64,000 nucleotides of DNA from an uncultured Azospirillum sp. (GCA_947301965.1 CAMYUM010000001.1:190731-254730), one strand, 5' to 3'. Positions 18,482 to 57,465 are shown, counted from the first letter of the stretch. The notes: generated from the sequence alone by a model not told the origin. A program made the numbers and translations.

Positions 18482-18847
18482 TTAGAGTTTCGGATAAAAG
18501 GCTTTTTTTAAGCCAACTTTGTTTTCAATTCCCCAACCCATGACCAATTTGTTGTTGAATATAATTATCGGGGTACCGACAGTGTTTTTGTGAAATTTGT
18601 ATTTTTCAAGATAATGTTTGAGGATTTTGATATTTTCCATATCGTAGGAAATATCTATTTGAGTCACCCGCAAAGAAGGGTTTTTTACAAGAAGGTCGTT
18701 GTTAATAAAATCAACCGCCTTTTCGCAATGAGAGCATCCCTGTTGGGTAAAAATGATAATGTCGGCATCAATATCTTGTTTAGAAGTTTTGCTGCAAGAA
18801 CAAAGCGTGAGAATGGTTACAAACAGTATATAAAAAATATTTTTCAT
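18482..18847 (-). CDS. thioredoxin-fold (glutaredoxin-like, CSHC active site) lipoprotein
   Basis: 121 aa; lipoprotein-type signal (MKNIFYILFVTILTLCSC); QQGCSHCEKAVDFIN CxxC motif in a glutaredoxin-like context. Confidence 0.5.
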   Translation of the reverse strand: MKNIFYILFVTILTLCSCSKTSKQDIDADIIIFTQQGCSHCEKAVDFINNDLLVKNPSLRVTQIDISYDMENIKILKHYLEKYKFHKNTVGTPIIIFNNKLVMGWGIENKVGLKKAFYPKL

Positions 18848-38842: not shown

Positions 38843-39565
38843 TTATTCAAACAAATAGCCGTTGTATATGATTTTGGTAACATAAAATTGTCGACACATT
38901 CCGGCACCGGGGATGCCACCATATAATTGTTTGGTGTGGACATCGCCTCGTTTGGTGGCGGTTTCAATATTAAAATATGAAAATTTTCCAGTTCCTTTCC
39001 AGTCCATAAGGTATCCTTCAAATTCGGCGACATCACCTTTTTTTAAGAGGGCAATGGCACGACGTATGGCGGTTGTTGCCGGAATGACGTGATTGTTGTT
39101 AATTTCGTCATGGTTTATGATTGGATTGTCTTTGTATAAATATGTATAAACGAGGGCGCGTTCACTATGTTTGAACTTGATTTTGCGCAAGTTGTCAGGA
39201 TCAGAAGTTGCACCATGTGCAATGGATATGTCAACGGAAGCCACGGCATTATATAGTTTTGTGGCCTCCTTGCCGGCGGAATGGTACCATGTGTTAATCA
39301 AGCCATCGTTCCAATCTACCCAGATGATGCGGCCTTTTACGTGGTATTTGGTACGCAGACAATATTCAATATTATAGCCGTTGATATAAGTTTTTTGCCA
39401 AGGTTGGTTGCCCAAGTCTTCAAAAGTCTCGATAAGTTCGGCGGAAGATGAAGATACGGGTTTTCCCCACAGTTTAGAATATAACGCGAGTTTGGAAATG
39501 TGAAAAATGCCGATAACTGTAATAATGCCGGCAATTAAAATTTGTTTTTTGGTCAGCTTAATCAT
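38843..39565 (-). CDS. hypothetical membrane-anchored protein (~240 aa) inserted between rplO and secY on the opposite strand
   Basis: Clean 741-nt ORF. Its N-terminal TM helix is ILIAGIITVIGIF. The track start at 39583 is a TTG, so the ATG at ~39565 (MIKLTKKQ…) is more likely. It shares the bidirectional terminator with rplO. No family recognised. Confidence 0.5.
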   Translation of the reverse strand: MIKLTKKQILIAGIITVIGIFHISKLALYSKLWGKPVSSSSAELIETFEDLGNQPWQKTYINGYNIEYCLRTKYHVKGRIIWVDWNDGLINTWYHSAGKEATKLYNAVASVDISIAHGATSDPDNLRKIKFKHSERALVYTYLYKDNPIINHDEINNNHVIPATTAIRRAIALLKKGDVAEFEGYLMDWKGTGKFSYFNIETATKRGDVHTKQLYGGIPGAGMCRQFYVTKIIYNGYLFE

Positions 39566-39681
39566 TTTTATATCTTCAGTCAAACAAGTCGGATTGTAGC
39601 TTATACAGGTTTATTTCGGGTTAATAAAAATAGTTTTTATGCAGATGAAAGCCATAAAAATTGAGGATAAAGAAAAATTTG

Positions 39682-44032: not shown

Positions 44033-44470
44033 CTAGCGTTCGAGAACGAATGTGACCGGACCGTCGTTAATCAGGCTAACTTGCATATCGGCCTGAAAAA
44101 TGCCGTTTTCGGTCGGGACGCCATGGTTTTTGAGTTGAGAGGAAAAGTATTCGTATAAGGGTTTGGCCTCTTCCGGGCGGGCGGCATTGTCAAATCCGGG
44201 GCGGTTGCCTTGAGAGCAGTCTCCGGCAAGTGTAAATTGAGAGATTACGAGGGCAGAGCCTTTGATATCTTTGACAGAAAGGTTCATTTTGCCTTGTTGA
44301 TCTTCAAATATACGCAGGTCAGAGGCTTTTCGTGCCAGATATTCAGCCTGTTTCGGGGCGTCTCCTTTTGCAATGCCGATAAAAATAAGCAAGCCTTGTC
44401 CAATTTGTCCGACTACTTGGTCGTTGACGGCGACAGAGGCTTTTTTGACACGTTGCAGCAATAGTTTCAT
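44033..44470 (-). CDS. dtd: D-aminoacyl-tRNA deacylase
   Basis: 145 aa; SQFTLAGD…GNRPGF Dtd motifs; sits on the opposite strand between rpoA and rplQ. Confidence 0.8.
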
Positions 44471-44674: not shown

Positions 44675-45301
44675 ATGAGACATGGTGATGCACATAAAAA
44701 ATTTAATATGCCGACCAGCCAGAGAAGAGCTTTGTTTTCTAATCTTACCTGCGCTTTGTTGACACACGAACAAATTAAAGTTACTTTGCCGCGCGCTAAA
44801 GAGTTGAGAACATTTGCCGATAACATGATTACTTTTGGTAAAAAAGGCGATTTGAACAGCCGTCGTTTGGCATTGGCCTTTTTGCGTGATGAAGAAGTTG
44901 TTGCAAAGTTGTTTTCGACTTTGGCAGAGCGTTACAAAAACCGCAATGGCGGTTATACCCGCGTTTTGAAAGCCGGCATTCGTTACGGCGATGCTGCTCC
45001 GATGGCGATTGTTGAGTTGGTTGACAGAGATGTTAAGGCCAAGGGTGCTAAAGATTTGGCTCGCGTAGCTGCTGAAAAGGCTGCTGCTGAAGCTGAGGAA
45101 AAAGCAGCCGAAGCAGAGGCTAAAAAAGCCGAGAAAAAGGCTGAAAAGAAAACCGAAAAGAAAGCAGAAAAGTCGGTAGAGAAAAAAGCTGAAAAGAAGG
45201 CAGTAGAAAAGAAAACCGAAAAGAAAGCCGAGAAGCCTGCAGAAAAGAAAGCTAAAGCTCCGGTAAAAGCTAAAAAAACTACCAAAACAGCTGAAAAATA
45301 A
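44675..45301 (+). CDS. rplQ: 50S ribosomal protein L17 with ~90-aa Lys/Ala/Glu-rich C-terminal extension
   Basis: N-terminal 118 aa canonical L17; then (A/T)EKK-type imperfect repeats encoded by tandem gctgaaaagaaa-like units (nt ~45030-45301). Confidence 0.88.
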
Positions 45302-45318: not shown

Positions 45319-45393
45319 AGATAAAAGGATGGCAAAAGCCATCCTTTTTGTTATAAAAAAACACCGGGCAGTTTGATCTGCGCGGTGTTTTTT
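45319..45393. terminator. two consecutive hairpin terminators after rplQ / before lipoprotein gene
   Basis: aaaggatggcaaaagccatcctttttg and aaaaaaacaccgggcag…ctgcgcggtgttttttg. Confidence 0.55.
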
Positions 45394-45413
45394 GAAAGAG
45401 GGTAGGAAAACGA

Positions 45414-46694
45414 TTATCGGTCGTAGAAAACAAGTCCAATGTTGAACTGTGCCTTACACTCGAGTTTGTCAAAATCGGCCATTACGTAGCGAATTAAACG
45501 GTAACCGACGTATTTGCCATTTTCGTTCTCTCCTGATTGATTTTGTATGAGCTCCTGTTCATCCGAGAAACGGAAGTTTTGGAATGTTGGAACAGGAAAG
45601 TCGCATTGCAGATAACCATCATAATAAAATGAAGCATCGCTATAGACTTCCATATCAAAATCAAAGAAGTTGTAAACGATATTGAGCATACGGTAATATC
45701 TTATTGTTTGTACGTACGGGACAATATACATATCGATAGCATTATAGACATCTCCCAGTTCGTATGAAACAATTTCGACAGTTTCAGGTTGCTGACCATG
45801 AAATATTATGCTCTTCATTTGGTCTTCAATGTAGGCATAAACCGGAACTTCAACAACTTCCGTCTTGACCTGACCATCCGACCACCACCGCTTGATTTGC
45901 AATCGAGAATGAACTTGGTCTCCTGAAGTGTAATAGGATGATGACAAGAGTTCACTCTTTTTAACGTAAGCTTCAAAGGCATCACCAAATGGAGTCTGTA
46001 AAATGACTTTAGCTTTGAGGGTGTAAGTTTCGCCGTTCAAATCAACTGAGATAGAATGGTCAATTTGTCTGCGAGCAAAAACCGTCAGGCTTTCATCGTT
46101 GATAGATTCAAGCTTGGAGATTTCCATACCTTTGTCTTTGAGATTTTGGATTTTGTGGTAGGGCATGAGTTCTCGGCTGATGCCATCGTCATAGACGGCA
46201 ACCTCATACTCAAGCTCGTATTCAAAAGAAAAATCCTCAAAGTTAACGGTATAAACCATTACGGAGTCAGTGATGGTGACGTAACCATCTTGACGAGTAC
46301 CTTTAACACGATACGAGATGTCGGTAGTGTAATCCCCAATATCAAAGTACGTGTTGTTGATTGTAATTGTAGTGTCGGTGTTGTGAAACACGTCTTTCAA
46401 GAGTACAGTAACGACGTCTCCGTCATCACCGGAAGCTCGAGTCTTGGGCGCAGTCTTGGTTTGGACCTTAATCCAAGATTCGTAGGAGAGCTCGGTACCG
46501 GAAATTGAGGCTCCGGTCTCGGTAGTGCCTGAAAGTTGTTGAGCAGTAACCTTGTTAGCAAGGCCGGTGTCAATAACTTTGCTTTCGATGACTTCCTGGT
46601 TTGCAGGGTCAAGGGGGTCCTCGCATGATGTAAACATCATGGCGGCCAAAAACACAGTTGCTGTGATAATCGGCCAAAACTTGATAGTTTTCAT
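45414..46694 (-). CDS. hypothetical secreted protein / lipoprotein (426 aa)
   Basis: Signal peptide MKTIKFWPIITATVFLAAMMFTSCEDP… with a Cys followed by an acidic stretch. The mature protein is Y/D/E-rich and probably beta-rich. It lies downstream of the two Cys-rich genes on the same strand. No family recognised. Confidence 0.5.
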   Translation of the reverse strand: MKTIKFWPIITATVFLAAMMFTSCEDPLDPANQEVIESKVIDTGLANKVTAQQLSGTTETGASISGTELSYESWIKVQTKTAPKTRASGDDGDVVTVLLKDVFHNTDTTITINNTYFDIGDYTTDISYRVKGTRQDGYVTITDSVMVYTVNFEDFSFEYELEYEVAVYDDGISRELMPYHKIQNLKDKGMEISKLESINDESLTVFARRQIDHSISVDLNGETYTLKAKVILQTPFGDAFEAYVKKSELLSSSYYTSGDQVHSRLQIKRWWSDGQVKTEVVEVPVYAYIEDQMKSIIFHGQQPETVEIVSYELGDVYNAIDMYIVPYVQTIRYYRMLNIVYNFFDFDMEVYSDASFYYDGYLQCDFPVPTFQNFRFSDEQELIQNQSGENENGKYVGYRLIRYVMADFDKLECKAQFNIGLVFYDR

Positions 46695-46904
46695 ACCTTT
46701 TGATATTAATTGTTAATAATAAATTTGTTGCCATAAAAATTGTAGAAAATAATTTGATTAAACTGTTCCGTTTATGGTCCGGTAGACCTTTAATGTAAAA
46801 TTTTGGAGTCTATTTACGCATTATGCATCACATGATAAACCAGAGTAGGTTAAAAAATGGTGAAGGTCAATATTGAGAGGTGAGTAGCCGCATAGTTATA
46901 AACA

Positions 46905-46943
46905 AAAAAAAGAGAGAAGATTCGATCTTCTCTCTTTTTGGGT
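46905..46943. terminator. bidirectional terminator after Cys-rich gene B
   Basis: aaaaaaaagagagaagattcgatcttctctctttttgg (11-bp stem flanked by an A-run and a T-run). Confidence 0.6.
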
Positions 46944-46961
46944 TTTTGTAACAGGGTATGC

Positions 46962-49487
46962 TTATTCACAAGTCATAAGCTGAACAGTAGAACGGTTGTC
47001 ATGGTTACAACTTTGATAAGTCATCTCGCAGAGATTGTTTACATATGTTTGTCGATCTCCGCAATTAGTTCCGCTGGTGCAGACCTGTTTTTTGGAGGTA
47101 TAATCAACAGATCTCAAGTAACCTTTATTTCCGGAAACAGTATATGTGCATGCCATGTAGGCTTGCGAATCGTATATATGAGCATCTCTGTTACCATTGC
47201 ATCCACATCTGAGCAATCTGACGTGGTTATGACGCTGGTAGTCAACTTTGTCTACCATTGAACATTTTTTGAGAATTTTGTTACGACCTTCCAAAATGCG
47301 GGCACTATTGTCGGTAACCTGTATTTTACTACCGGTAGTTAAACCAATTGTGTATTGGGCCGAATTGTTGGGGTTGTAAAGATACCAGTCAAGAGCGTTA
47401 GACAAGTTTAAGGTTAAACCTCTTGCACGGTAAGCGCCTTGAGCCCAACCAACCTGAAGATTGGTGTAAACACTGGCCGGAGAAGAGCTCGAAGGTCCGT
47501 AAAATCTGAAGGTTTTGTTGACAAGAGATGCTGATGGTAAGTGATCTTTATCAGAACAACTTTTTCCGGTCTCAGCATCTTTTATTGTCCAATTGTAGCG
47601 GTTTTGATAGGTATCACGCTCGTTACCGATCTGGAATTTGTTAACCGCAAAGACCTGACCCTCACCAAGAGTGATTGAGTTGGTAACATCTTTCGAGCTA
47701 ATATCGGTCAAAGTTCCTCGACCAAAGTACGAAGATTCGCTGTTGAACGAGTATCCGGAGGATAGAAATCGGTTTCTGTTAACTAGTTCTCCTGAAATGT
47801 TAACTTCACCGGTTCCTGTTAACGTGAGGGTTCCATAATTCCAAAGTGTTCCGCTGACAGTCAAGATTCCGTTATCAACAGTTAAAGCACGGTAGGAAGA
47901 AGTTGATTGAGGGAATCTGAGTTCGATTCCCTTGAAATTAAGGGGATCGGTATTTGCTTGCGAATCATTGCTCGGAAATGTCGATGCCGTGTATGTAATC
48001 ACCGGGGTGCCACTGCAGTTATTTTTGGCGTTGTCGGCAATAGGATCATCGCCGAAAGTTTCAAGATACTGGGCGGCTGAAATATAGGTTTTAGCCTTAG
48101 AGCCTACGAGCCCGGCGTAACCAGTGGTAGTATTCGTCGTAGTTATATCTCTGGTGTGAGTGCATACGGCTAGCATTTCTCTGCCGCCACCGCCGTTGCC
48201 TCGAGCACAACCATATCGTGTGAGGTTACTGTACGGTTGATCAAGATATTGACATGGAATAGGCCCTATGTGTGAGAACGTCCATTCGCTGCCAAGATCA
48301 TGATGTTGCCATACGCCACAGTTTGTGCAAACACAACTGTCATCATCCTGGTAGAATGGATTTTCGCGAGGAGTAACGTTATCCTTGCACTCACGCCTTA
48401 TGCAAACGGTTGTTGTGTGAGAGCTGCTTGAAGAGCTATTACTACCAGCTGTACTTATGGTTACACTGTCAGCTACAATTGCTTTGGTTGCAGTACTGGT
48501 ATTACCATTACCATCTACAACTGTGGTAGCGGTCAATACACCATACTGGGTATCATTAGTGGCTTTTAATAACTCTTTGATTGCACCGGAACATGTGTCT
48601 TTGGTGCACTTGCCGTTAACAACGGTGTATCCCGATTTGCAAGAAGTGGCTCTGTAGCGTTCACTATTGCCACCGGTACATCCCTTTTCAGTACGGCATT
48701 TGACGTAATTTACCACTTCACTGGGGAGCTCTGTATAAGGGTAAGTTGTGGCATCGCACTGACAGCAGTCGGAAACGTATTGCAGTCCATCTTCGTCAGT
48801 ACAAGTTGTGGCACTTCCGGGAACACCATAACTACAGGTTGTTTTAAGGATAGTTTCGTTACATTCACATTTTGTAAAGTGTTCATCGCCATCAGGAGCG
48901 TCCTGGCATCTGATACCACCAGCTTTCATACCTTTGGCCTGGCAGATCTCTACAGTACGGGGATAGGTGACAGGATTACACAAACAACCTTTGTAAAGCG
49001 AGGTTGTAACTAAGGCATCGTTTTTGTATTGTCTAAAATAGCAGATGCCGTTTGCGTAATCACCACGAGCGTTTTCATACGAAGTACCGTTGCTGAGGCG
49101 AGTACAGTTGTCCCCACTTTCATAATAATCAAACTCATCGGGGCATCCACATTTTAGCAAATTACCGCATCGATCAAGTATGATGTTGGTGCTGTCGCAT
49201 TGGGAGGTATATTCAGCGTCGCAACATAATACCCAGTTGTTGTCATAAGGACAGTAGTCACCGATATGTTTTGGGGTGACACATTCAGTTCTTTTGACGG
49301 TATAGCCCGCTTCTTTGCATTTTTGTTCAAGTTCGTTAGCATCAGGGATAATATCATCAGGATTAACGCTTCCATCTCCACACTCGCCGGAGGGGAGAAA
49401 ACAAACGCTGGCGTTGGTACTTAAAGACCAAAAACAGCAACAGCCGACAAGCAATGCGGCCATTAGATATTTATACGATTTTTTCAT
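46962..49487 (-). CDS. large cysteine-rich secreted protein, paralog B (841 aa)
   Basis: Signal peptide MKKSYKYLMAALLVGCCCFWSLSTNA. About 34 Cys lie in the first ~330 aa with conserved spacing (CPYDNNWVLCC, CGNLLKCGC, YPRTVEIC, TKCEC, CSYGVP, TYPYTELPSEV, NGKC). An S/T/N linker follows, then a second Cys cluster. A ~400-aa Cys-free region carries NISGEL/VSGTL repeats. A small C-terminal Cys cluster ends in MTCE. It is about 50% identical to the product of 49655..52183. Confidence 0.7.
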   Translation of the reverse strand: MKKSYKYLMAALLVGCCCFWSLSTNASVCFLPSGECGDGSVNPDDIIPDANELEQKCKEAGYTVKRTECVTPKHIGDYCPYDNNWVLCCDAEYTSQCDSTNIILDRCGNLLKCGCPDEFDYYESGDNCTRLSNGTSYENARGDYANGICYFRQYKNDALVTTSLYKGCLCNPVTYPRTVEICQAKGMKAGGIRCQDAPDGDEHFTKCECNETILKTTCSYGVPGSATTCTDEDGLQYVSDCCQCDATTYPYTELPSEVVNYVKCRTEKGCTGGNSERYRATSCKSGYTVVNGKCTKDTCSGAIKELLKATNDTQYGVLTATTVVDGNGNTSTATKAIVADSVTISTAGSNSSSSSSHTTTVCIRRECKDNVTPRENPFYQDDDSCVCTNCGVWQHHDLGSEWTFSHIGPIPCQYLDQPYSNLTRYGCARGNGGGGREMLAVCTHTRDITTTNTTTGYAGLVGSKAKTYISAAQYLETFGDDPIADNAKNNCSGTPVITYTASTFPSNDSQANTDPLNFKGIELRFPQSTSSYRALTVDNGILTVSGTLWNYGTLTLTGTGEVNISGELVNRNRFLSSGYSFNSESSYFGRGTLTDISSKDVTNSITLGEGQVFAVNKFQIGNERDTYQNRYNWTIKDAETGKSCSDKDHLPSASLVNKTFRFYGPSSSSPASVYTNLQVGWAQGAYRARGLTLNLSNALDWYLYNPNNSAQYTIGLTTGSKIQVTDNSARILEGRNKILKKCSMVDKVDYQRHNHVRLLRCGCNGNRDAHIYDSQAYMACTYTVSGNKGYLRSVDYTSKKQVCTSGTNCGDRQTYVNNLCEMTYQSCNHDNRSTVQLMTCE

Positions 49488-49529
49488 GATGAACCTCCCT
49501 TATTTAACACTATGCGCGCATTATATTTC

Positions 49530-49558
49530 ATTATACGTTAAAAAACAGTAAAAGTCAA
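49530..49558 (-). promoter_or_regulatory. consensus sigma-70 promoter of Cys-rich gene B
   Basis: Read on the minus strand: TTGACT, a 17-nt spacer (tttactgttttttaacg), then TATAAT. A ~45-nt leader leads to the AAGGGAGG RBS and the ATG at 49487. Confidence 0.55.
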
Positions 49559-49589
49559 TATAAAGCGGGTTAGAATCGATTATTTGGAT

Positions 49590-49632
49590 CTTAAAAACAA
49601 AATCGATATAGATTGCAGTCTATACCGATTTT
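49590..49632 (-). terminator. rho-independent terminator of Cys-rich gene A
   Basis: AAAATCGATATAGA ttgcag TCTATACCGATTTT: a 14-bp stem with one mismatch, followed on the minus strand by TTTTGTTTTT. Confidence 0.55.
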
Positions 49633-49654
49633 GTTTGTAGAGAATAGTATGCTA

Positions 49655-52183
49655 TTATTCGTATTCGGAGTCTTCACAAGTGAGCATAACTCCGGTTTTG
49701 GGGCCAAAGTAGTCTTCGTCATGGCCTCTTGAATAGCTAAAGCTGCAGCCACTACCAAAAGTTGTCTTTATGTTGACACAATCACCGTCAGGTTTGACGG
49801 TTACTGTAGAGCTAGAACTTTCGCGAGAAACATAGCCACTGCTACCTATTGAACAAGCATAGTAAGATGATAACCCAAGAGGAGAGTTATCTCCGCTTGA
49901 CGTTATACAACTATCGGCTTGACAATCTAAGAAACGATGTCGGTCTCGTCCGAAATAGACGGTATCTGTCATTTTGCACCAACCATAGGATGTGTTGTAT
50001 CCGGCCCAGATGCGGGCGTAGTTACCATAACCATAGTCGGTTGAATATATCTTACTGCCGGTGGTCAGATTAATGTAATAATTTCTGGAATTACCATACA
50101 AGTTCCAGTCAAGATTGCCGGACATACGAAGGGTTAAGAAACTGGTGCGTAAGGTTTTGCCCGGTATGTAACCGAGATAAAGGTTGGTGTAGATATTGGC
50201 AGTGTTTGATGATGAAGGACCTTCAAAATCTACAGTTGTATAATAGGGGTAGGCAAGAGGCAATGATTGGCCGACAATATCGGTGGTAATGCTGGGATGA
50301 GAACTTCTATACTGATCAGTAGCTGAAGAAATGGCCAAAGTGGAAACCCTGAACTCTTGTCTGGGGCCAAAGCTAAAGCTTGCCGGTGTTCTGTTTCTGT
50401 ATTTTTCCGGGATTAAAATATTAATAGTTCCGGAAGAATATGATGATGATTCGTTATATGAATACCCTGAGGAATCAAAAGTATCCATGATTTGCAGTGT
50501 TCCGGAAATATTAACATTGCCATTGCTTGAAGGTGACGACAGATTTATCGGACCATAGGCATTGAGAGTTCCGGTTATGTTCAATCCGCCTTCGTTCAAG
50601 ACAAGTTTGCGATAAGATTTGGTTGTGCTTGAAAACTTTAGATTGACATTAGAAAAACTGATTGTTTGGTTGCTGGCAGATTCAGAGTCATTAGCCGGGA
50701 AATTCGATGCCGTGTAAGTTATGGTCGGCGTGTTTTTGCAAACAGTTCGGGCGGTAGCTGCGGCAGGATCGTTATTTACTACCGAATTCAAAAATTGAGT
50801 TGCCGAAATATATTGTGTGGCTTTAGAATTAGCCAGCCCCTTATAAGTAGTCGAAGTTGAAGAATTGCTTACTGTTACGACATCCGTACACTTGGCCGTC
50901 ATGCTTCGACCATAGAAATCACGAGGGCAAACGGTATCATATGCACTGTTGGGATAAATACGGTTATAATCACACGGGAGATAATAGTTGCACATTTCAA
51001 GTGCATCTGCGTTCATGTGATTTTCGAGACAACAGTTTGTGCATGTGCAGTTTTCAGTATCTTCATAATATGGAATTGTCTGGGGCGAAACACAAGTGCG
51101 TTGGCGACACATTCGAGTTGAGCCTGTATTGGTTGATGAACTATTGGTGCTGGCAGTAGAAATAGTTACATCATCAGCAACGATGGCTTTAGTGGCATTA
51201 CTGGTGTTGCCATCAGCATCAACAACGCCACTAGATGTCAATAAACCGTACGCTGTGTTTGGATTGTATTTTAAGTAGGTCTTAAGTGCATTTAAACAAG
51301 ATACCTGTTCGCACTTGCCGTTTCTGACTTCATATCCTGGTTTGCAAGTTTCTGCTTTGTAGCGATTGCTGCTTCCGCCGATGCAGCCTTGAGCCGCGCG
51401 ACAAGCGGTATAAGTGTCAACTTCCGGCGGTATTTCGGTATAAGGATATGTTGACGAACTACAAGAGCAACATGCAGAAGTGTATTGCACGCCTTCTTCT
51501 GATGTACATATCTGAGCGGTCGGGGGAACACCGTAGGTACACGATGACTTAAGAATAGTGCTGGTGCATAAACACTTTGTATAATGTTTTTTTCCGTTAC
51601 TGTCTTGACACATGGTTCCACCACCAACCATATTGCGGGCAGCACAAATACTATCCGTACGCGGGTAAACTGTGTCATCGCAAATACACCCGGTATATAG
51701 AGGTACGGTATTTAGCTGGTTGTTAACATAGGTTGGGAGGTAACAAATGCCGTTATCATAATCACCCTGGCTATTTTGGTATTCCGTACCGGTGCTGTAT
51801 CGTGCGCAGCCGGTATTATTTTCATTATAGTCGTACTCTTCAGCGCAGCCACATTTTACGAGTGTGCCGCATATGTCGACAACAATATTAGTGCTTTCAC
51901 ATTGCAAAGTGTAATCAGGAGTACAACACATTACCCAGTTGTTGTCATAAGGACAAAAAGCACCGATTTTTTGGGGAGAAACACAAGCGGACTTGGCAAC
52001 AATATAGCCGTCGGCAGCACATTTACTGGCAAGATCATCAACGTCAACATCTGCGCCGGCAACTTCGGAGTCTGCACAATTGCCTCGGGGGAGAAAACAT
52101 ACATTAGCATTGGCTGATATAGCCCAGAAACAGCCGCATGCAATCAGCGTTAAGGCTGTCAGATATTTGAATGATTTTGTCAT
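49655..52183 (-). CDS. large cysteine-rich secreted protein, paralog A (~842 aa from MTKSF start)
   Basis: The track gives 49655..52225, but the upstream ATG (MKYSAHVV…) lies inside the -10 box of the duplicated promoter. The start at ~52183 (MTKSFKYLTALTLIACGCFWAISANA) has a GGGGAGA RBS and aligns with the paralog B N-terminus. Domain layout is the same as B (CPYDNNWVMCC, CGTLVKCGC, YPRTDSIC, TKCLC, CTYGVP, TYPYTEIPPEV, NGKC). Confidence 0.7.
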   Translation of the reverse strand: MTKSFKYLTALTLIACGCFWAISANANVCFLPRGNCADSEVAGADVDVDDLASKCAADGYIVAKSACVSPQKIGAFCPYDNNWVMCCTPDYTLQCESTNIVVDICGTLVKCGCAEEYDYNENNTGCARYSTGTEYQNSQGDYDNGICYLPTYVNNQLNTVPLYTGCICDDTVYPRTDSICAARNMVGGGTMCQDSNGKKHYTKCLCTSTILKSSCTYGVPPTAQICTSEEGVQYTSACCSCSSSTYPYTEIPPEVDTYTACRAAQGCIGGSSNRYKAETCKPGYEVRNGKCEQVSCLNALKTYLKYNPNTAYGLLTSSGVVDADGNTSNATKAIVADDVTISTASTNSSSTNTGSTRMCRQRTCVSPQTIPYYEDTENCTCTNCCLENHMNADALEMCNYYLPCDYNRIYPNSAYDTVCPRDFYGRSMTAKCTDVVTVSNSSTSTTYKGLANSKATQYISATQFLNSVVNNDPAAATARTVCKNTPTITYTASNFPANDSESASNQTISFSNVNLKFSSTTKSYRKLVLNEGGLNITGTLNAYGPINLSSPSSNGNVNISGTLQIMDTFDSSGYSYNESSSYSSGTINILIPEKYRNRTPASFSFGPRQEFRVSTLAISSATDQYRSSHPSITTDIVGQSLPLAYPYYTTVDFEGPSSSNTANIYTNLYLGYIPGKTLRTSFLTLRMSGNLDWNLYGNSRNYYINLTTGSKIYSTDYGYGNYARIWAGYNTSYGWCKMTDTVYFGRDRHRFLDCQADSCITSSGDNSPLGLSSYYACSIGSSGYVSRESSSSTVTVKPDGDCVNIKTTFGSGCSFSYSRGHDEDYFGPKTGVMLTCEDSEYE

Positions 52184-52222
52184 GGCCAATCTCCCCAATA
52201 ATACCACGTGCGCACTATACTT

Positions 52223-52251
52223 CATTATACGTTAAAAAACAGTAAAAGTCA
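52223..52251 (-). promoter_or_regulatory. consensus sigma-70 promoter of Cys-rich gene A (duplicate of the gene B promoter)
   Basis: The same TTGACT-tttactgttttttaacg-TATAAT sequence as at 49530-49558. The duplicated block extends ~80 nt. Coordinates are +/-1 nt. Confidence 0.55.
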
Positions 52252-52392
52252 ATAATAAGCGGTATAGAATCGGGAAAAAGGGAGACGATTACGAAAAATT
52301 TCCGATATTGCAAAAATCGCTTGAAAATGAATCAATTCGTGCTAAATTAGGGGCGAAATTTTTTAATGCCCGTGCGGGGCGTTCCGCACTAA

Positions 52393-53421
<1,029 letters not shown>

Positions 53422-56472: not shown

Positions 56473-56928
56473 ATGTTTTCGGATAAATGGCATCATCGTT
56501 TTATGGAAGTGGCAAAATTGATTGCCAGTTGGTCAAAAGACACCAGCACCAAAACCGGTGCAGTGGTAGTCGGACCGGATAGAGAAATAAGGGCTACCGG
56601 CTATAACGGACTGGTTCGCGGAGTTGACGACAATATTCCCGAAAGATTGGAAAGACCGACCAAGTATGATTTTTTTGAGCATGCGGAACGTAATGCTATA
56701 TATAATGCCTGCTTGACCGGAACCAGTTTGAAAGGCTGTGTGCTTTATGCGACTCATCCGCCGTGCACCGATTGTGCGCGTGCAATTATTCAGGCCGGAA
56801 TTAAGATGGTGGTTACCAATGAGATGAAAATTGACGGCAACACCCCCAGCGGCACATGGCGTGACAAATTATGCTATTCCGAGCAGATGTTTCAAGAAGC
56901 CGGTGTTGAGTATAAGGTATTAAAGTAG
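56473..56928 (+). CDS. dCMP (deoxycytidylate) deaminase, ComEB-like
   Basis: HAERNAI…PCTDCARAI zinc motif of the CMP/dCMP deaminase family; 151 aa. Confidence 0.65.
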   Translation: MFSDKWHHRFMEVAKLIASWSKDTSTKTGAVVVGPDREIRATGYNGLVRGVDDNIPERLERPTKYDFFEHAERNAIYNACLTGTSLKGCVLYATHPPCTDCARAIIQAGIKMVVTNEMKIDGNTPSGTWRDKLCYSEQMFQEAGVEYKVLK

Positions 56929-56931
56929 ATA

Positions 56932-57465
56932 TTACCATTTTTCCCAGTGAATTTTTTCGGGTTTGTAGCGGTCTTGGGGCTGTATTGGAGTTTCGGCGGG
57001 GTAACCCATAATGATAATGGCAATCGGTCTAATGTGCTGGGGTAAATCTAAAAGTTCACGTAATCCGTCAATAACCAACGGCATGGGAGATGCTCCGCAA
57101 AAACAGGAGCCGATGCCTTTGGCATGAGCAGCAAGCATAAGGTTTTCGGCGGCCAAAGAGCAATCTATATCGGCATAGTCCCATTTTTCACCGTCTTTGT
57201 TGCGGCTGAATGTTTGTTCGGTGTCGCCGCAGACAATAATTGCACATGCTGCTTCGTCGGCAAAAGAGGTCCAGCGTTGGACCGAGCGAAGGGAACTCAA
57301 GGCGTTGCGGTCTTCAATAACCAAAAATTCCCACGGCTGTTTGTTATGAGCTGAAGGAGCATGTTGTGCAGCTTTGATTATGTCTTCAATATCCTGATGA
57401 GAGATTTTTTGGTTTTTATATTTACGAACAGAACGTCGTGTCAGAAGTCCCTGATATAATTCCAT
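56932..57465 (-). CDS. nitroreductase-family protein
   Basis: LTRRSVRKY…PSAHNKQPWEF nitroreductase N-terminal motif; 177 aa. Confidence 0.6.
   Translation of the reverse strand: MELYQGLLTRRSVRKYKNQKISHQDIEDIIKAAQHAPSAHNKQPWEFLVIEDRNALSSLRSVQRWTSFADEAACAIIVCGDTEQTFSRNKDGEKWDYADIDCSLAAENLMLAAHAKGIGSCFCGASPMPLVIDGLRELLDLPQHIRPIAIIIMGYPAETPIQPQDRYKPEKIHWEKW

Follow-up and report, generated by a model that had tools for sequence, protein, structure and literature searches.

Gene organisation and transcription signals

Two tandem genes, A and B, are located on the minus strand of the window (the whole 64,000-nucleotide stretch analysed, from an uncultured Azospirillum sp.) and are followed in the same orientation by a lipoprotein gene, L (Table 1). 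The neighbours of the locus are the housekeeping genes gap, pgk, rplQ and rpoA. Both large open reading frames lie where the original prediction had placed them, each with approx. 6% cysteine (A, 841 aa and 51 Cys, 6.1%; B, 842 aa and 49 Cys when the start is set at 52183), and the co-oriented lipoprotein gene is likewise present (426 aa, 3 Cys). The start of B was chosen because of the ribosome-binding site and the promoter position, i.e., the listed ORF start at 52225 falls within the -10 box, and 52183 has a ribosome-binding site, GGGGAG, upstream of it.

Table 1. Features of the A-B-L locus, numbered from the first nucleotide of the window
Feature	Position	Strand	Description
Gene B	49655-52183	minus	842-aa secreted Cys-rich beta-helix protein, B-type paralog; ORF, start by ribosome-binding site and promoter position
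Gene A	46962-49487	minus	841-aa secreted Cys-rich beta-helix protein, A-type paralog; ORF and AlphaFold model
Gene L	45414-46694	minus	426-aa lipoprotein, partner of the Cys-rich proteins; two internal, mutually related domains
N-terminal domain of A	48588-49409	minus	Residues 27-300; 26 conserved Cys; tandem C..C..CxC modules
Right-handed parallel beta-helix of A (predicted)	47238-48107	minus	Residues ~461-750
Strain-variable cassette in A	47480-48600	minus	Residues ~296-670; sliding nucleotide identity 57-83% inside, 99-100% outside
Strain-variable cassette in L	45385-45980	minus	C-terminal domain, residues ~240-426; 59-75% nucleotide identity
B promoter block	52199-52272	minus	TTGACT-N17-TATAAT at 52252-52224
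A promoter block	49505-49578	minus	TTGACT-N17-TATAAT at 49558-49530; 86% identical to B block over 74 nt
L promoter motif	46842-46870	minus	Third, diverged copy; TTGACC-N17-TACTCT
Intrinsic terminator after B	49595-49636	minus	18-bp hairpin, -20.6 kcal/mol, z -7.8, then U-run
Intrinsic terminator after A	46907-46939	minus	15-bp hairpin and T-run
Two hairpins after L	45323-45393	minus	First followed by U7; second common to the convergent L17 gene

All of the sequence motifs that had been quoted (CPYDNNWV[LM]CC, CGxLxKCGC, YPRTxxIC, TKCxC, C[ST]YGVP, TYPYTE[LI]PxEV, NGKC, and C[TV]CTNC) occur in both A and B, and the TCE / SEYE ends are present as described. Several quantities require adjustment. 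A and B are 43% (BLASTP) or 45% (MAFFT) identical rather than approx. 50%; the first 330 residues contain 32 cysteines (29 of them in the mature protein) rather than approx. 34; and the supposedly cysteine-free region of approx. 400 residues is instead cysteine-poor and about 250-300 residues long, with Cys491 and Cys644 of A inside it.

The TTGACT-N17-TATAAT promoter expected upstream of A and B was found (score 11/12). The two genes do share an upstream block, although it is not the identical one of approx. 80 nt that had been reported but one of 74 nt with 86% identity and an identical core of 34 nt. A 25-nt promoter motif matches three times in the window (0.00 expected), is identical at 25 of 25 positions upstream of A and B in two other genomes (L001 and L008), where it also precedes L, and is confined, in the window and two other genomes, to the regions upstream of A, B, and L. 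Each gene also has its own terminator, since a strong hairpin and U-run lie 3' of all three (z-scores -6.8 to -8.7). Judged by these signals, A, B, and L are three separate transcription units, which the shared 25-nt motif may co-regulate; this was counted in favour of a single module. The description of the genes as strongly expressed was overstated: it was derived only from the promoter consensus, and codon adaptation (0.59 for A and B, 0.57 for L) is at the low end among the genes of the window, in which ribosomal and glycolytic genes reach 0.65-0.79. Such low values fit poorly with an abundant coat protein.

A narrowly distributed family of cysteine-rich proteins

Searches of A, B, and L against Pfam, NCBIfam, PHROG, PADLOC, and PDB sequences returned no match, in keeping with the earlier failure to recognise the family; neither A nor B matched any Pfam-A family in hmmscan at E<=1, nor did 47 relatives match Pfam at E<=0.01. 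An exhaustive profile search of 1.84 billion proteins yielded only 59 representative clusters, and all those that could be placed by origin come from metagenome-assembled genomes of gut or rumen Alphaproteobacteria. No relatives were detected in 2.9 million viral contigs, which, together with the missing PHROG match and the housekeeping neighbours, argues against a phage tailspike or depolymerase. A-type and B-type orthologs are both present in two other genomes (B-type orthologs are P0007 and L001 7285-9831), a recurrence that bears out the proposed old duplication. On the basis of these searches, A and B are members of an undescribed, narrowly distributed family, the members of which are named CRPs here.

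In the N-terminal domain, 26 cysteines are conserved at >=85% in 47 sequences that share only approx. 27% identity. Conservation otherwise extends to Tyr, Gly, Pro, and a handful of hydrophobic or polar residues (V, F, K, N) but not to His. CxC and CC motifs are frequent in A and B, and CxxC occurs twice in each. The model of this domain is confident (pLDDT 89.7), and its predicted fold has no match among solved structures. Fold searches placed nothing but eukaryotic disulfide-rich modules (furin-like, EGF, and TNFR repeats) at the top, and none of these resemblances is significant. R-spondin furin-like repeats, the EGF modules of Pvs25, and TNFR cysteine-rich domains resemble A and B in consisting of small, disulfide-stapled beta-hairpin units in tandem, and the predicted model suggests that the cysteines of the N-terminal domain would likewise form disulfides. 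FeFe-hydrogenase genes adjoin the module in relatives, which makes a strictly anaerobic life probable for the organism. The window has no identified Dsb oxidase, its sole candidate being a weak Glrx-like CxxC lipoprotein; this and the probable anaerobic life were counted against the surface complex proposed below.

Further along A, the cysteines C362, C367, C385, C387, C390, C412, C427, and C442 are invariant in one alignment (A1). They are followed by the beta-helix that the original prediction had suspected, which is predicted to be right-handed and parallel (a pectate-lyase-like, three-stranded coiled beta-solenoid). The C-terminus of the AlphaFold model is a small cysteine-containing beta region, not a barrel.

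The signal-peptidase-I site, with cleavage between AxA and xVCF, is preserved wherever the N-terminus of a family member is intact, which substantiates the view that these are secreted proteins. The lipobox-like LVGC and LIAC of A and B are lost in wider relatives (e.g., P0075 and P0066), i.e., a conserved lipobox cysteine that would place A and B among lipoproteins is lacking. Neither a twin-arginine motif nor a further hydrophobic segment beyond the signal peptide was found in A or B. The proteins were rightly said not to be classic autotransporters: there is neither a barrel nor a membrane anchor, and the signs of an autotransporter or Pmp protein (a C-terminal barrel, GGA[ILV] or FxxN repeats) were not found, with no Pfam match and no GGA[ILV]. 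The TPS domain and adjacent Omp85-type TpsB of two-partner secretion were not found for A and B either, and no outer-membrane translocation or anchoring device (barrel, LPXTG, T9SS, or TPS signature) is recognisable in them.

Strain-level variation and the lipoprotein partner

Among strains of the same species, the locus is 99-100% identical in DNA, the exceptions being blocks with sharp edges in A, B, and L. The core of the A cassette (residues ~336-478) has three alleles in three strains, with cysteine positions kept; the first half of the A helix, which falls within the cassette, is 62-83% identical; the 3' part of B is 77-91% identical; and the extreme C-terminus is 97-99% identical. Outside its cassette, L is 100% identical in nucleotide sequence, and in the strains compared its variable part changes along with that of A. 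Overall, variation is concentrated distally, behind a conserved N-terminus. Relative to L001, housekeeping neighbours show 94-99% protein identity (dN 0.006-0.04), whereas A, B, and L show 59-71% (dN 0.20-0.35), and in L009 PGK is approx. 93% identical (estimated by eye), whereas identity drops to 27% for the CRP located there. Hypervariability is the one feature that points to surface exposure, and a route across the outer membrane may likewise be supposed. A role at the surface or in host interaction, proposed earlier from a single sequence in which strain-level cassettes could not be detected, is strengthened by them and is plausible. The part of that proposal that linked the locus to distant genes is not supported: no evidence connects it with the Pmp-like fragment (3-989), 45 kb distant, or with the CxxC lipoprotein (18482-18847), 27 kb distant, and neither of the two is found at the conserved loci elsewhere.

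Instead, sequence comparison indicates that the real partner of A and B, overlooked in the original prediction, is L. It is predicted to be lipidated, with the signal peptide MKTIKFWPIITATVFLAAMMFTS directly before the cysteine of a lipobox (FTSC), and this residue, Cys24, is invariant in 26 homologs. The partnership is deduced from conserved adjacency and a natural fusion. A Cys-rich gene adjoins L in the window and in L001, L008, L009, L010, L011/L012, L003, L014, and L017, which amounts to at least seven independent loci at three different chromosomal positions; in P0036 (a cluster of 21 member sequences), CRP residues 12-182 are fused to L residues 66-290. Homologs of L are also found on their own, in a Bacteroidota-like context, and thus L is not strictly dependent on CRPs. 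Physical contact between CRP and L may be supposed.

A putative variable surface complex and its alternatives

There is roughly an even chance, in our estimation, that A and B, as paralogous CRPs, act with L as one cell-surface module; the complex would most likely be disulfide-scaffolded, antigenically variable, and exposed at the surface. After cleavage by signal peptidase I behind AxA, a CRP would retain the invariant xVCF N-terminus, and its N-terminal ~275 residues would form a rigid series of small beta-hairpin modules, stapled by approx. 13 disulfides from the 26 cysteines. This conserved domain might be a docking or stalk element that binds the conserved N-terminal domain of L or fills the same anchoring role. 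The distal part, with disulfide-scaffolded loops (residues ~340-480), the right-handed beta-helix, and the small C-terminal cysteine cluster, would face outward and offer a binding surface that is adhesin-like or protective; phages, host immunity, or predators would exert the pressure under which recombination diversifies it. The top structural matches are adhesins. The beta-solenoid adhesins compared (the L. reuteri SRRP binding region (5nxk), Bordetella Vag8, Fusobacterium Fap2, H. pylori VacA p55, and Haemophilus Hap) are only 6-14% identical to A and B in sequence; they have neither a 26-Cys N-terminal domain nor a dedicated lipoprotein partner, whereas A and B lack an LPXTG anchor, autotransporter barrel, TPS domain, or TpsB partner.

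A and B could alternatively be secreted polysaccharide-active enzymes (lyase, hydrolase, or depolymerase) that serve to feed on plant or mucin glycans in the gut, with a catalytic helix and a cysteine domain that stabilises it or binds carbohydrate. However, neither A and B nor any of the 47 relatives is hit by a lyase or hydrolase model of Pfam or NCBIfam, and the top structural matches are adhesins. Beyond the N-terminal domain, not one D, E, K, R, or H reaches >=50% in the consensus of the family, and the only invariant acidic residues in the helix among seven close relatives are D625 and D700; moreover, the first half of the helix is a recombination cassette, which would be unusual for an active site. 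Lyases and GH28-type enzymes are thus an unlikely model.

The cysteine density, the Sec export, and the lack of an outer-membrane export signal would also suit periplasmic structural proteins that are cross-linked by disulfides and stiffen the wall, as in chlamydial OmcB/OmcA or planctomycete cysteine-rich wall proteins, with L as the membrane anchor. A and B do share with OmcB/OmcA the character of a large, Cys-rich, Sec-exported Gram-negative envelope protein whose gene adjoins a lipoprotein gene, an arrangement that recalls the chlamydial omcB-omcA operon. Nevertheless, the OmcB precedent invoked earlier is an analogy only, as no Pfam match to chlamydial or planctomycete cysteine-rich envelope families was obtained (A and B at E<=1; for OmcB/OmcA, also the 47 relatives at E<=0.01) and no sequence relationship to OmcB/OmcA exists. 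Moreover, L is not Cys-rich, the architecture (a novel hairpin array and a beta-helix) is different, and the 26 cysteines are located within one compact, confidently folded domain, which suggests bonds within rather than between molecules. Sharply bounded strain cassettes, which set this locus apart from OmcB/OmcA, would be hard to explain in a protein buried in the periplasm, and a wall function appears decidedly unlikely.

The conserved N-terminus, the variable distal regions, the covariation of L with A, and the different lengths of the C-terminal regions among family members (600-1080 aa) recall a polymorphic-toxin or bacteriocin-like competition system, in which the N-terminus would serve trafficking, the distal parts would be effectors, and L would be related to immunity or a receptor. 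No toxin, immunity, or defence model matches, however, and the variable part consists of a beta-helix and its loops, unlike a compact C-terminal toxin domain; the nearly invariant extreme C-terminus is equally at odds with such a system. L is an exported 426-aa lipoprotein that also occurs alone in other phyla, and the module is found at a fixed housekeeping position, with no signs of mobile elements and no homolog in viral contigs; only a slim chance is left to this explanation. Although the inferred anaerobic lifestyle and the frequent CxC and CC motifs would suit extracytoplasmic metallo- or redox proteins with Zn or Fe-S bound by the conserved cysteines, this is highly improbable, given a Sec-type signal peptide without a twin-arginine motif (cofactor-loaded proteins are normally exported via Tat), no conserved His or acidic partner, an even number of conserved cysteines (26), and a hairpin-rich fold like that of the eukaryotic disulfide modules, non-significant as those resemblances are.

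For a variable surface complex of CRPs and L, Giardia VSPs and ciliate surface antigens, the Cys-rich variable surface coats of gut protists, offer an analogy. A and B resemble them in the dense conserved cysteine scaffold with variable sequence, in the fixed ends and variable middle, and in the gut habitat, to which protease resistance is relevant. In contrast, the protist proteins are eukaryotic, CXXC-rich, and attached through a membrane segment or GPI, whereas A and B have two CxxC motifs each, no hydrophobic segment past the signal peptide, and no homology to Giardia VSPs at E<=1; in addition, their variation is allelic between strains and not a switching of repertoire. Tentatively, and with considerable doubt, it may be envisaged that uncultured anaerobic gut and rumen Alphaproteobacteria coat themselves with a new surface complex, in which a secreted protein with a new fold of approx. 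13 disulfides, placed on a dedicated lipoprotein, would carry disulfide-scaffolded loops and a beta-helix that recombination reshuffles between strains, and would be exported by an unrecognised secretion route. If true, the cysteine-rich variable coats of gut protists would have an equivalent among bacteria.

Architecture of the cysteine-rich proteins and their family

The tandem paralogous genes A and B, which encode the putatively secreted cysteine-rich beta-helix proteins (CRPs), and the neighbouring lipoprotein gene L are co-oriented in the ORF list and lie between rplQ and gap. The listed start of B (52225) was reset to 52183, since the ATG at 52225 falls within the -10 hexamer, and the ATG at 52183 has a GGGGAG ribosome-binding site ahead of it; the resulting length fits the one guessed in the original prediction.

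Features of the A/B/L locus, its surroundings and related contigs (window positions unless a contig is named)
Feature	Position	Strand	Description
L	45414-46694	minus	426 aa, 3 Cys
A	46962-49487	minus	841 aa, 51 Cys (6.1%)
B	49655-52183	minus	842 aa, 49 Cys (5.8%)
rplQ	44675-45301	plus	ribosomal protein L17
gap	52414-53421		
dtd	44033-44470; L001 15052-15489		
Variable block in A	48600-47480		residues ~296-670, 57-83% identity
Variable block in L	45980-45385		residues ~240-426, 59-75% identity
Variable 3' part of B			77-91% identity
Leader block of L	46733-46787	minus	~55 nt
Predicted lipoprotein	18482-18847	minus	121 aa, LTLC|S, CSHC motif
Fragment at window start	3-989	minus	N-terminal part of secreted protein
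ORF before secY	38843-39583	minus	246 aa
GerE-type regulator gene	L001 1975-2595; L013 1820-2440; L011 7177-7797		206 aa
Junction without the regulator gene	56928-56932		
Lone L homolog	L005-L007, 10001-11299		36% identical to L
P0124	L016 8001-9899		repeated Cys modules

The anatomy of A and B described from the sequence proved right, and every cysteine motif quoted at that stage was found in both proteins. Several figures had to be lowered: A and B are 43% (BLASTP) or 45% (MAFFT) identical rather than approx. 50%, 29 cysteines instead of approx. 34 were counted in the mature part of the first ~330 aa, and the Cys-poor stretch covers approx. 250-300 aa and not approx. 400. The cysteines are clustered at residues 1-300, 360-445 and 740-841. 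Across the wide family, the signal peptide always ends in AxA followed by xVCF, whereas several members lack the lipobox-like Cys that A and B have; A and B are thus predicted to be substrates of signal peptidase I, and their assignment as lipoproteins was rejected. Their sequences contain neither a twin-arginine motif nor a second hydrophobic segment.

The N-terminal domain (N-domain) keeps 26 Cys at 85% or more in 47 sequences of approx. 27% identity, and the other kept residues are chiefly Tyr, Gly and Pro, with a few V, F, K and N. Profile-profile comparison indicates that its sub-segments are tandem related 4-Cys modules (C..C..CxC), with probabilities of 90% for residues 127-183 vs. 181-219, 83% for 96-130 vs. 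127-183, and 68% for 181-219 vs. 217-265. Two more distant proteins, P0124 and P0125, consist nearly entirely of repeated 'C..GY..C..CPY(D/N)..C' modules, i.e., the first module of the A/B N-domain, and one of them has a gene with a faint Lcl_C match downstream. Because these proteins are built of that module, the Cys module is probably used as a mobile repeat unit outside the A/B architecture. In the predicted full-length model of A (overall pLDDT 66.7; 421 of 841 residues at 70 or above, mostly 170-350 and 460-750), the distal part is a right-handed beta-helix. As anticipated when a classic autotransporter was discounted, neither a barrel nor an anchor follows the helix in this model or in the A and B sequences.

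A, B and L gave no meaningful match in Pfam, NCBIfam, PHROGs, PADLOC or PDB sequences, the A/B and L family profiles matched nothing in the PDB, and 47 relatives of A and B are all devoid of Pfam domains. The family, which had not been recognised at first reading, accordingly matches no known one in the databases, and literature searches returned no description of it. A word-indexed search of 5.8 billion proteins returned only 7 clusters, and an exhaustive profile search of 1.84 billion representatives returned 59 matches at E<=1e-3 (18 of them reaching E<=1e-30), most of which, at 600-1080 aa, have only the N-terminal ~330 residues in common. A further homolog search with the wide-alignment profile added little and yielded no new taxon names, a genome-collection scan with the alignment of close relatives (A1) matched only two GTDB representative genomes, and the viral contigs scanned held no relative. 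Where a source is named, it is a MAG with the label Rhodospirillales or Alphaproteobacteria, and several of these are 'RUG' rumen genomes.

The putative partner L and the organisation of the locus

The L family comprises at least 37 clusters; the lipobox Cys is invariant in 26 homologs, and alignment reveals two related internal domains. In addition to the window and strains L014 and L017, a CRP gene lies next to L at the same gap/rplQ site in L001 (GCA_030523445.1) and L008 (RUG10691), as a B-A-L trio, and in L009, as a single CRP with a convergent L; it also does so beside an FeFe-hydrogenase cluster (L010 and L003) and at a third chromosomal position (L011 and L012). Contig L013 carries a tandem CRP-CRP pair. 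Moreover, the two proteins are naturally fused in one lineage (cluster P0036, 21 member sequences), in which residues 12-183 align to A 12-182 (31% identity, E 6e-15) and residues 199-426 to L 66-290 (40% identity, E 3e-49). That the CRP N-domain and L may act jointly is best supported by this Rosetta-stone fusion combined with the conserved adjacency of the two genes at three chromosomal positions.

A lone L homolog, with no Cys-rich neighbour, occurs among Bacteroidota-like genes (DUF5686, Tricorn-like protease and GH20). The residues directly after the lipobox Cys of L are acidic (CEDP, CSSDE, CSSDDD) and appear to resemble Bacteroidota surface-lipoprotein export signals; taken together, these observations hint at a possible transfer between gut phyla.

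A strong hairpin with a U-run lies directly after each of the three genes (z-scores -6.8 to -8.7), as had been foreseen for A and B, so A, B and L are predicted to be three separate transcription units. The upstream block shared by A and B, which was claimed to be identical over approx. 80 nt, is indeed duplicated and carries TTGACT-N17-TATAAT in its core; nonetheless, it is 74 nt long at 86% identity, and only a 34-nt core is identical. A diverged third copy of the motif with the same spacer (TTGACC-N17-TACTCT) lies upstream of L, and a degenerate 25-mer occurs at exactly three places in the 64-kb window, upstream of A, B and L, vs. 0.00 expected. Contigs L001 and L008 carry the same three promoter motifs. 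The strong expression put forward in the original prediction was not borne out: codon adaptation of A, B and L is low (0.57-0.59 vs. 0.65-0.79 for ribosomal and glycolytic genes), which does not support very high expression.

An Rfam scan across the locus gave sub-threshold chance matches only. The block in the 5' leader of L, GTCTACCGGACnATAAACGGAACAGTTT...CTACAnnTTTTAT, is kept in the window, L001, L008 and the far more distant L009 (L proteins approx. 33% identical), and is missing from L002, L003 and L010. Nothing in Rfam matches it, and a structured RNA was rejected given a weak consensus fold (-5.8 kcal/mol); the block could serve as a leader element or be bound by a regulator.

Other features were noted around the locus. 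The L17 protein is 208, 184, 201 and 168 aa long across related genomes; repeats with a 12-nt period encode its long, Lys/Ala/Glu-rich C-terminal tail. In related genomes, the cytidine deaminase and nitroreductase genes flank a GerE-type response-regulator gene (in L011, it is immediately upstream of the CRP gene), which is missing from that junction in the window. The ORF before secY, which runs against the ribosomal-protein genes that surround it, has no Pfam match; a similar uncharacterised 240-aa gene occupies its place in L001.

Divergence and strain-variable cassettes

When the window is compared with L001, the housekeeping neighbours reach 94-99% protein identity (dN 0.006-0.04, dN/dS 0.016-0.05), a range that leaves out dtd (79%, dN 0.12), whereas the values for A, B and L are 59%, 66% and 71%, respectively (dN 0.20-0.35, dN/dS approx. 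0.14-0.155). The gene dtd may have been carried along by recombination at the variable locus. In L009, the CRP at the same site is 27% identical, and PGK is approx. 93% identical as judged by eye rather than computed.

L014 and L017 are strains of the same species, with dtd and rplQ 98-99% identical to the window in DNA, and their locus is 99-100% identical outside sharply bounded blocks. Within the A block, the core (residues ~336-478) differs among all three strains, at 61-78% identity, and its eight Cys are invariant in A1. The A cassette of L014 is no copy of other known alleles (55-58% identity) or of B (just 40%), and gene conversion from B was rejected as its source on the latter ground. 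In exposed bacterial surface antigens, a mosaic of this kind is the product of recombination under diversifying selection. By analogy, we infer that the pattern at this locus reflects recombination under diversifying selection on exposed surface proteins. Contigs L002, L004, L014 and L018 begin or end exactly at the locus, as would be expected if the variable cassettes and the repeated promoter block interrupt assembly.

The proposed surface module and its alternatives

On the basis of the sequences and the model of A, A and B are rated as putative secreted beta-helix surface proteins that have a Cys-rich domain of a new kind and L as their dedicated lipoprotein partner. The overall explanation, in which a disulfide-stalk CRP and L form a variable surface module, has about an even chance of being correct. 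The CRP would be exported by Sec and cut by signal peptidase I, its N-terminal stalk would fold oxidatively with approx. 13 disulfides and associate with L, and the loop region and beta-helix would be displayed at the cell surface, forming a variable face for binding or protection. No recognisable device for crossing the outer membrane was found for the CRP, and no Dsb-type oxidase was found among 20 further window ORFs searched or seen in the window. The sole candidate in the window is the predicted lipoprotein with the CSHC motif, which lies 27 kb away from A, B and L and may be a periplasmic thiol-disulfide oxidoreductase; its resemblance to the Glutaredoxin-like domain PF05768 is weak, and the match (E 9e-4) does not reach the Pfam cut-off. 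The fragment at the window start, which runs off the end, appears Pmp-like by eye (GGALSN and F[IV][DN]NS repeats) and has no Pfam match at E<=1e-3. The proposed link between these two proteins and the locus found no support, the fragment having no conserved linkage to A, B and L.

The distal half of A and B is like beta-solenoid surface proteins at the level of fold only; when tested for membership, A and B belonged to none of the autotransporter, TPS, OmcB, VSP, lyase or phage tailspike families. That A and B are glycan-degrading enzymes is unlikely, since no charged residue is kept in the distal half of the family consensus, which argues against a conserved active site. It is quite unlikely that they are periplasmic disulfide-cross-linked wall proteins of the OmcB type; the original parallel with Chlamydia holds as an analogy, and not as membership of the OmcB family. 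A polymorphic toxin-like system is very unlikely, and metal binding by the conserved Cys is highly improbable. The surface module is the preferred reading; its widest form, a novel type of bacterial surface coat that is scaffolded by disulfides, recombines and takes an unrecognised export route, is tentative and rather doubtful.

If the model is true, a new fold and a new two-component surface module would join the few known bacterial disulfide-rich envelope structures, and the oxidation and export of a protein with approx. 50 Cys by an anaerobe would call for an explanation. Even if its role is ordinary adhesion, the N-domain, which has no Pfam, NCBIfam or PDB counterpart, merits family definition. 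The locus would also give access to the cell surface of an alphaproteobacterial lineage of gut and rumen that is known from metagenomes only, with practical uses such as markers for strain typing and candidates for phage receptors and adhesins.
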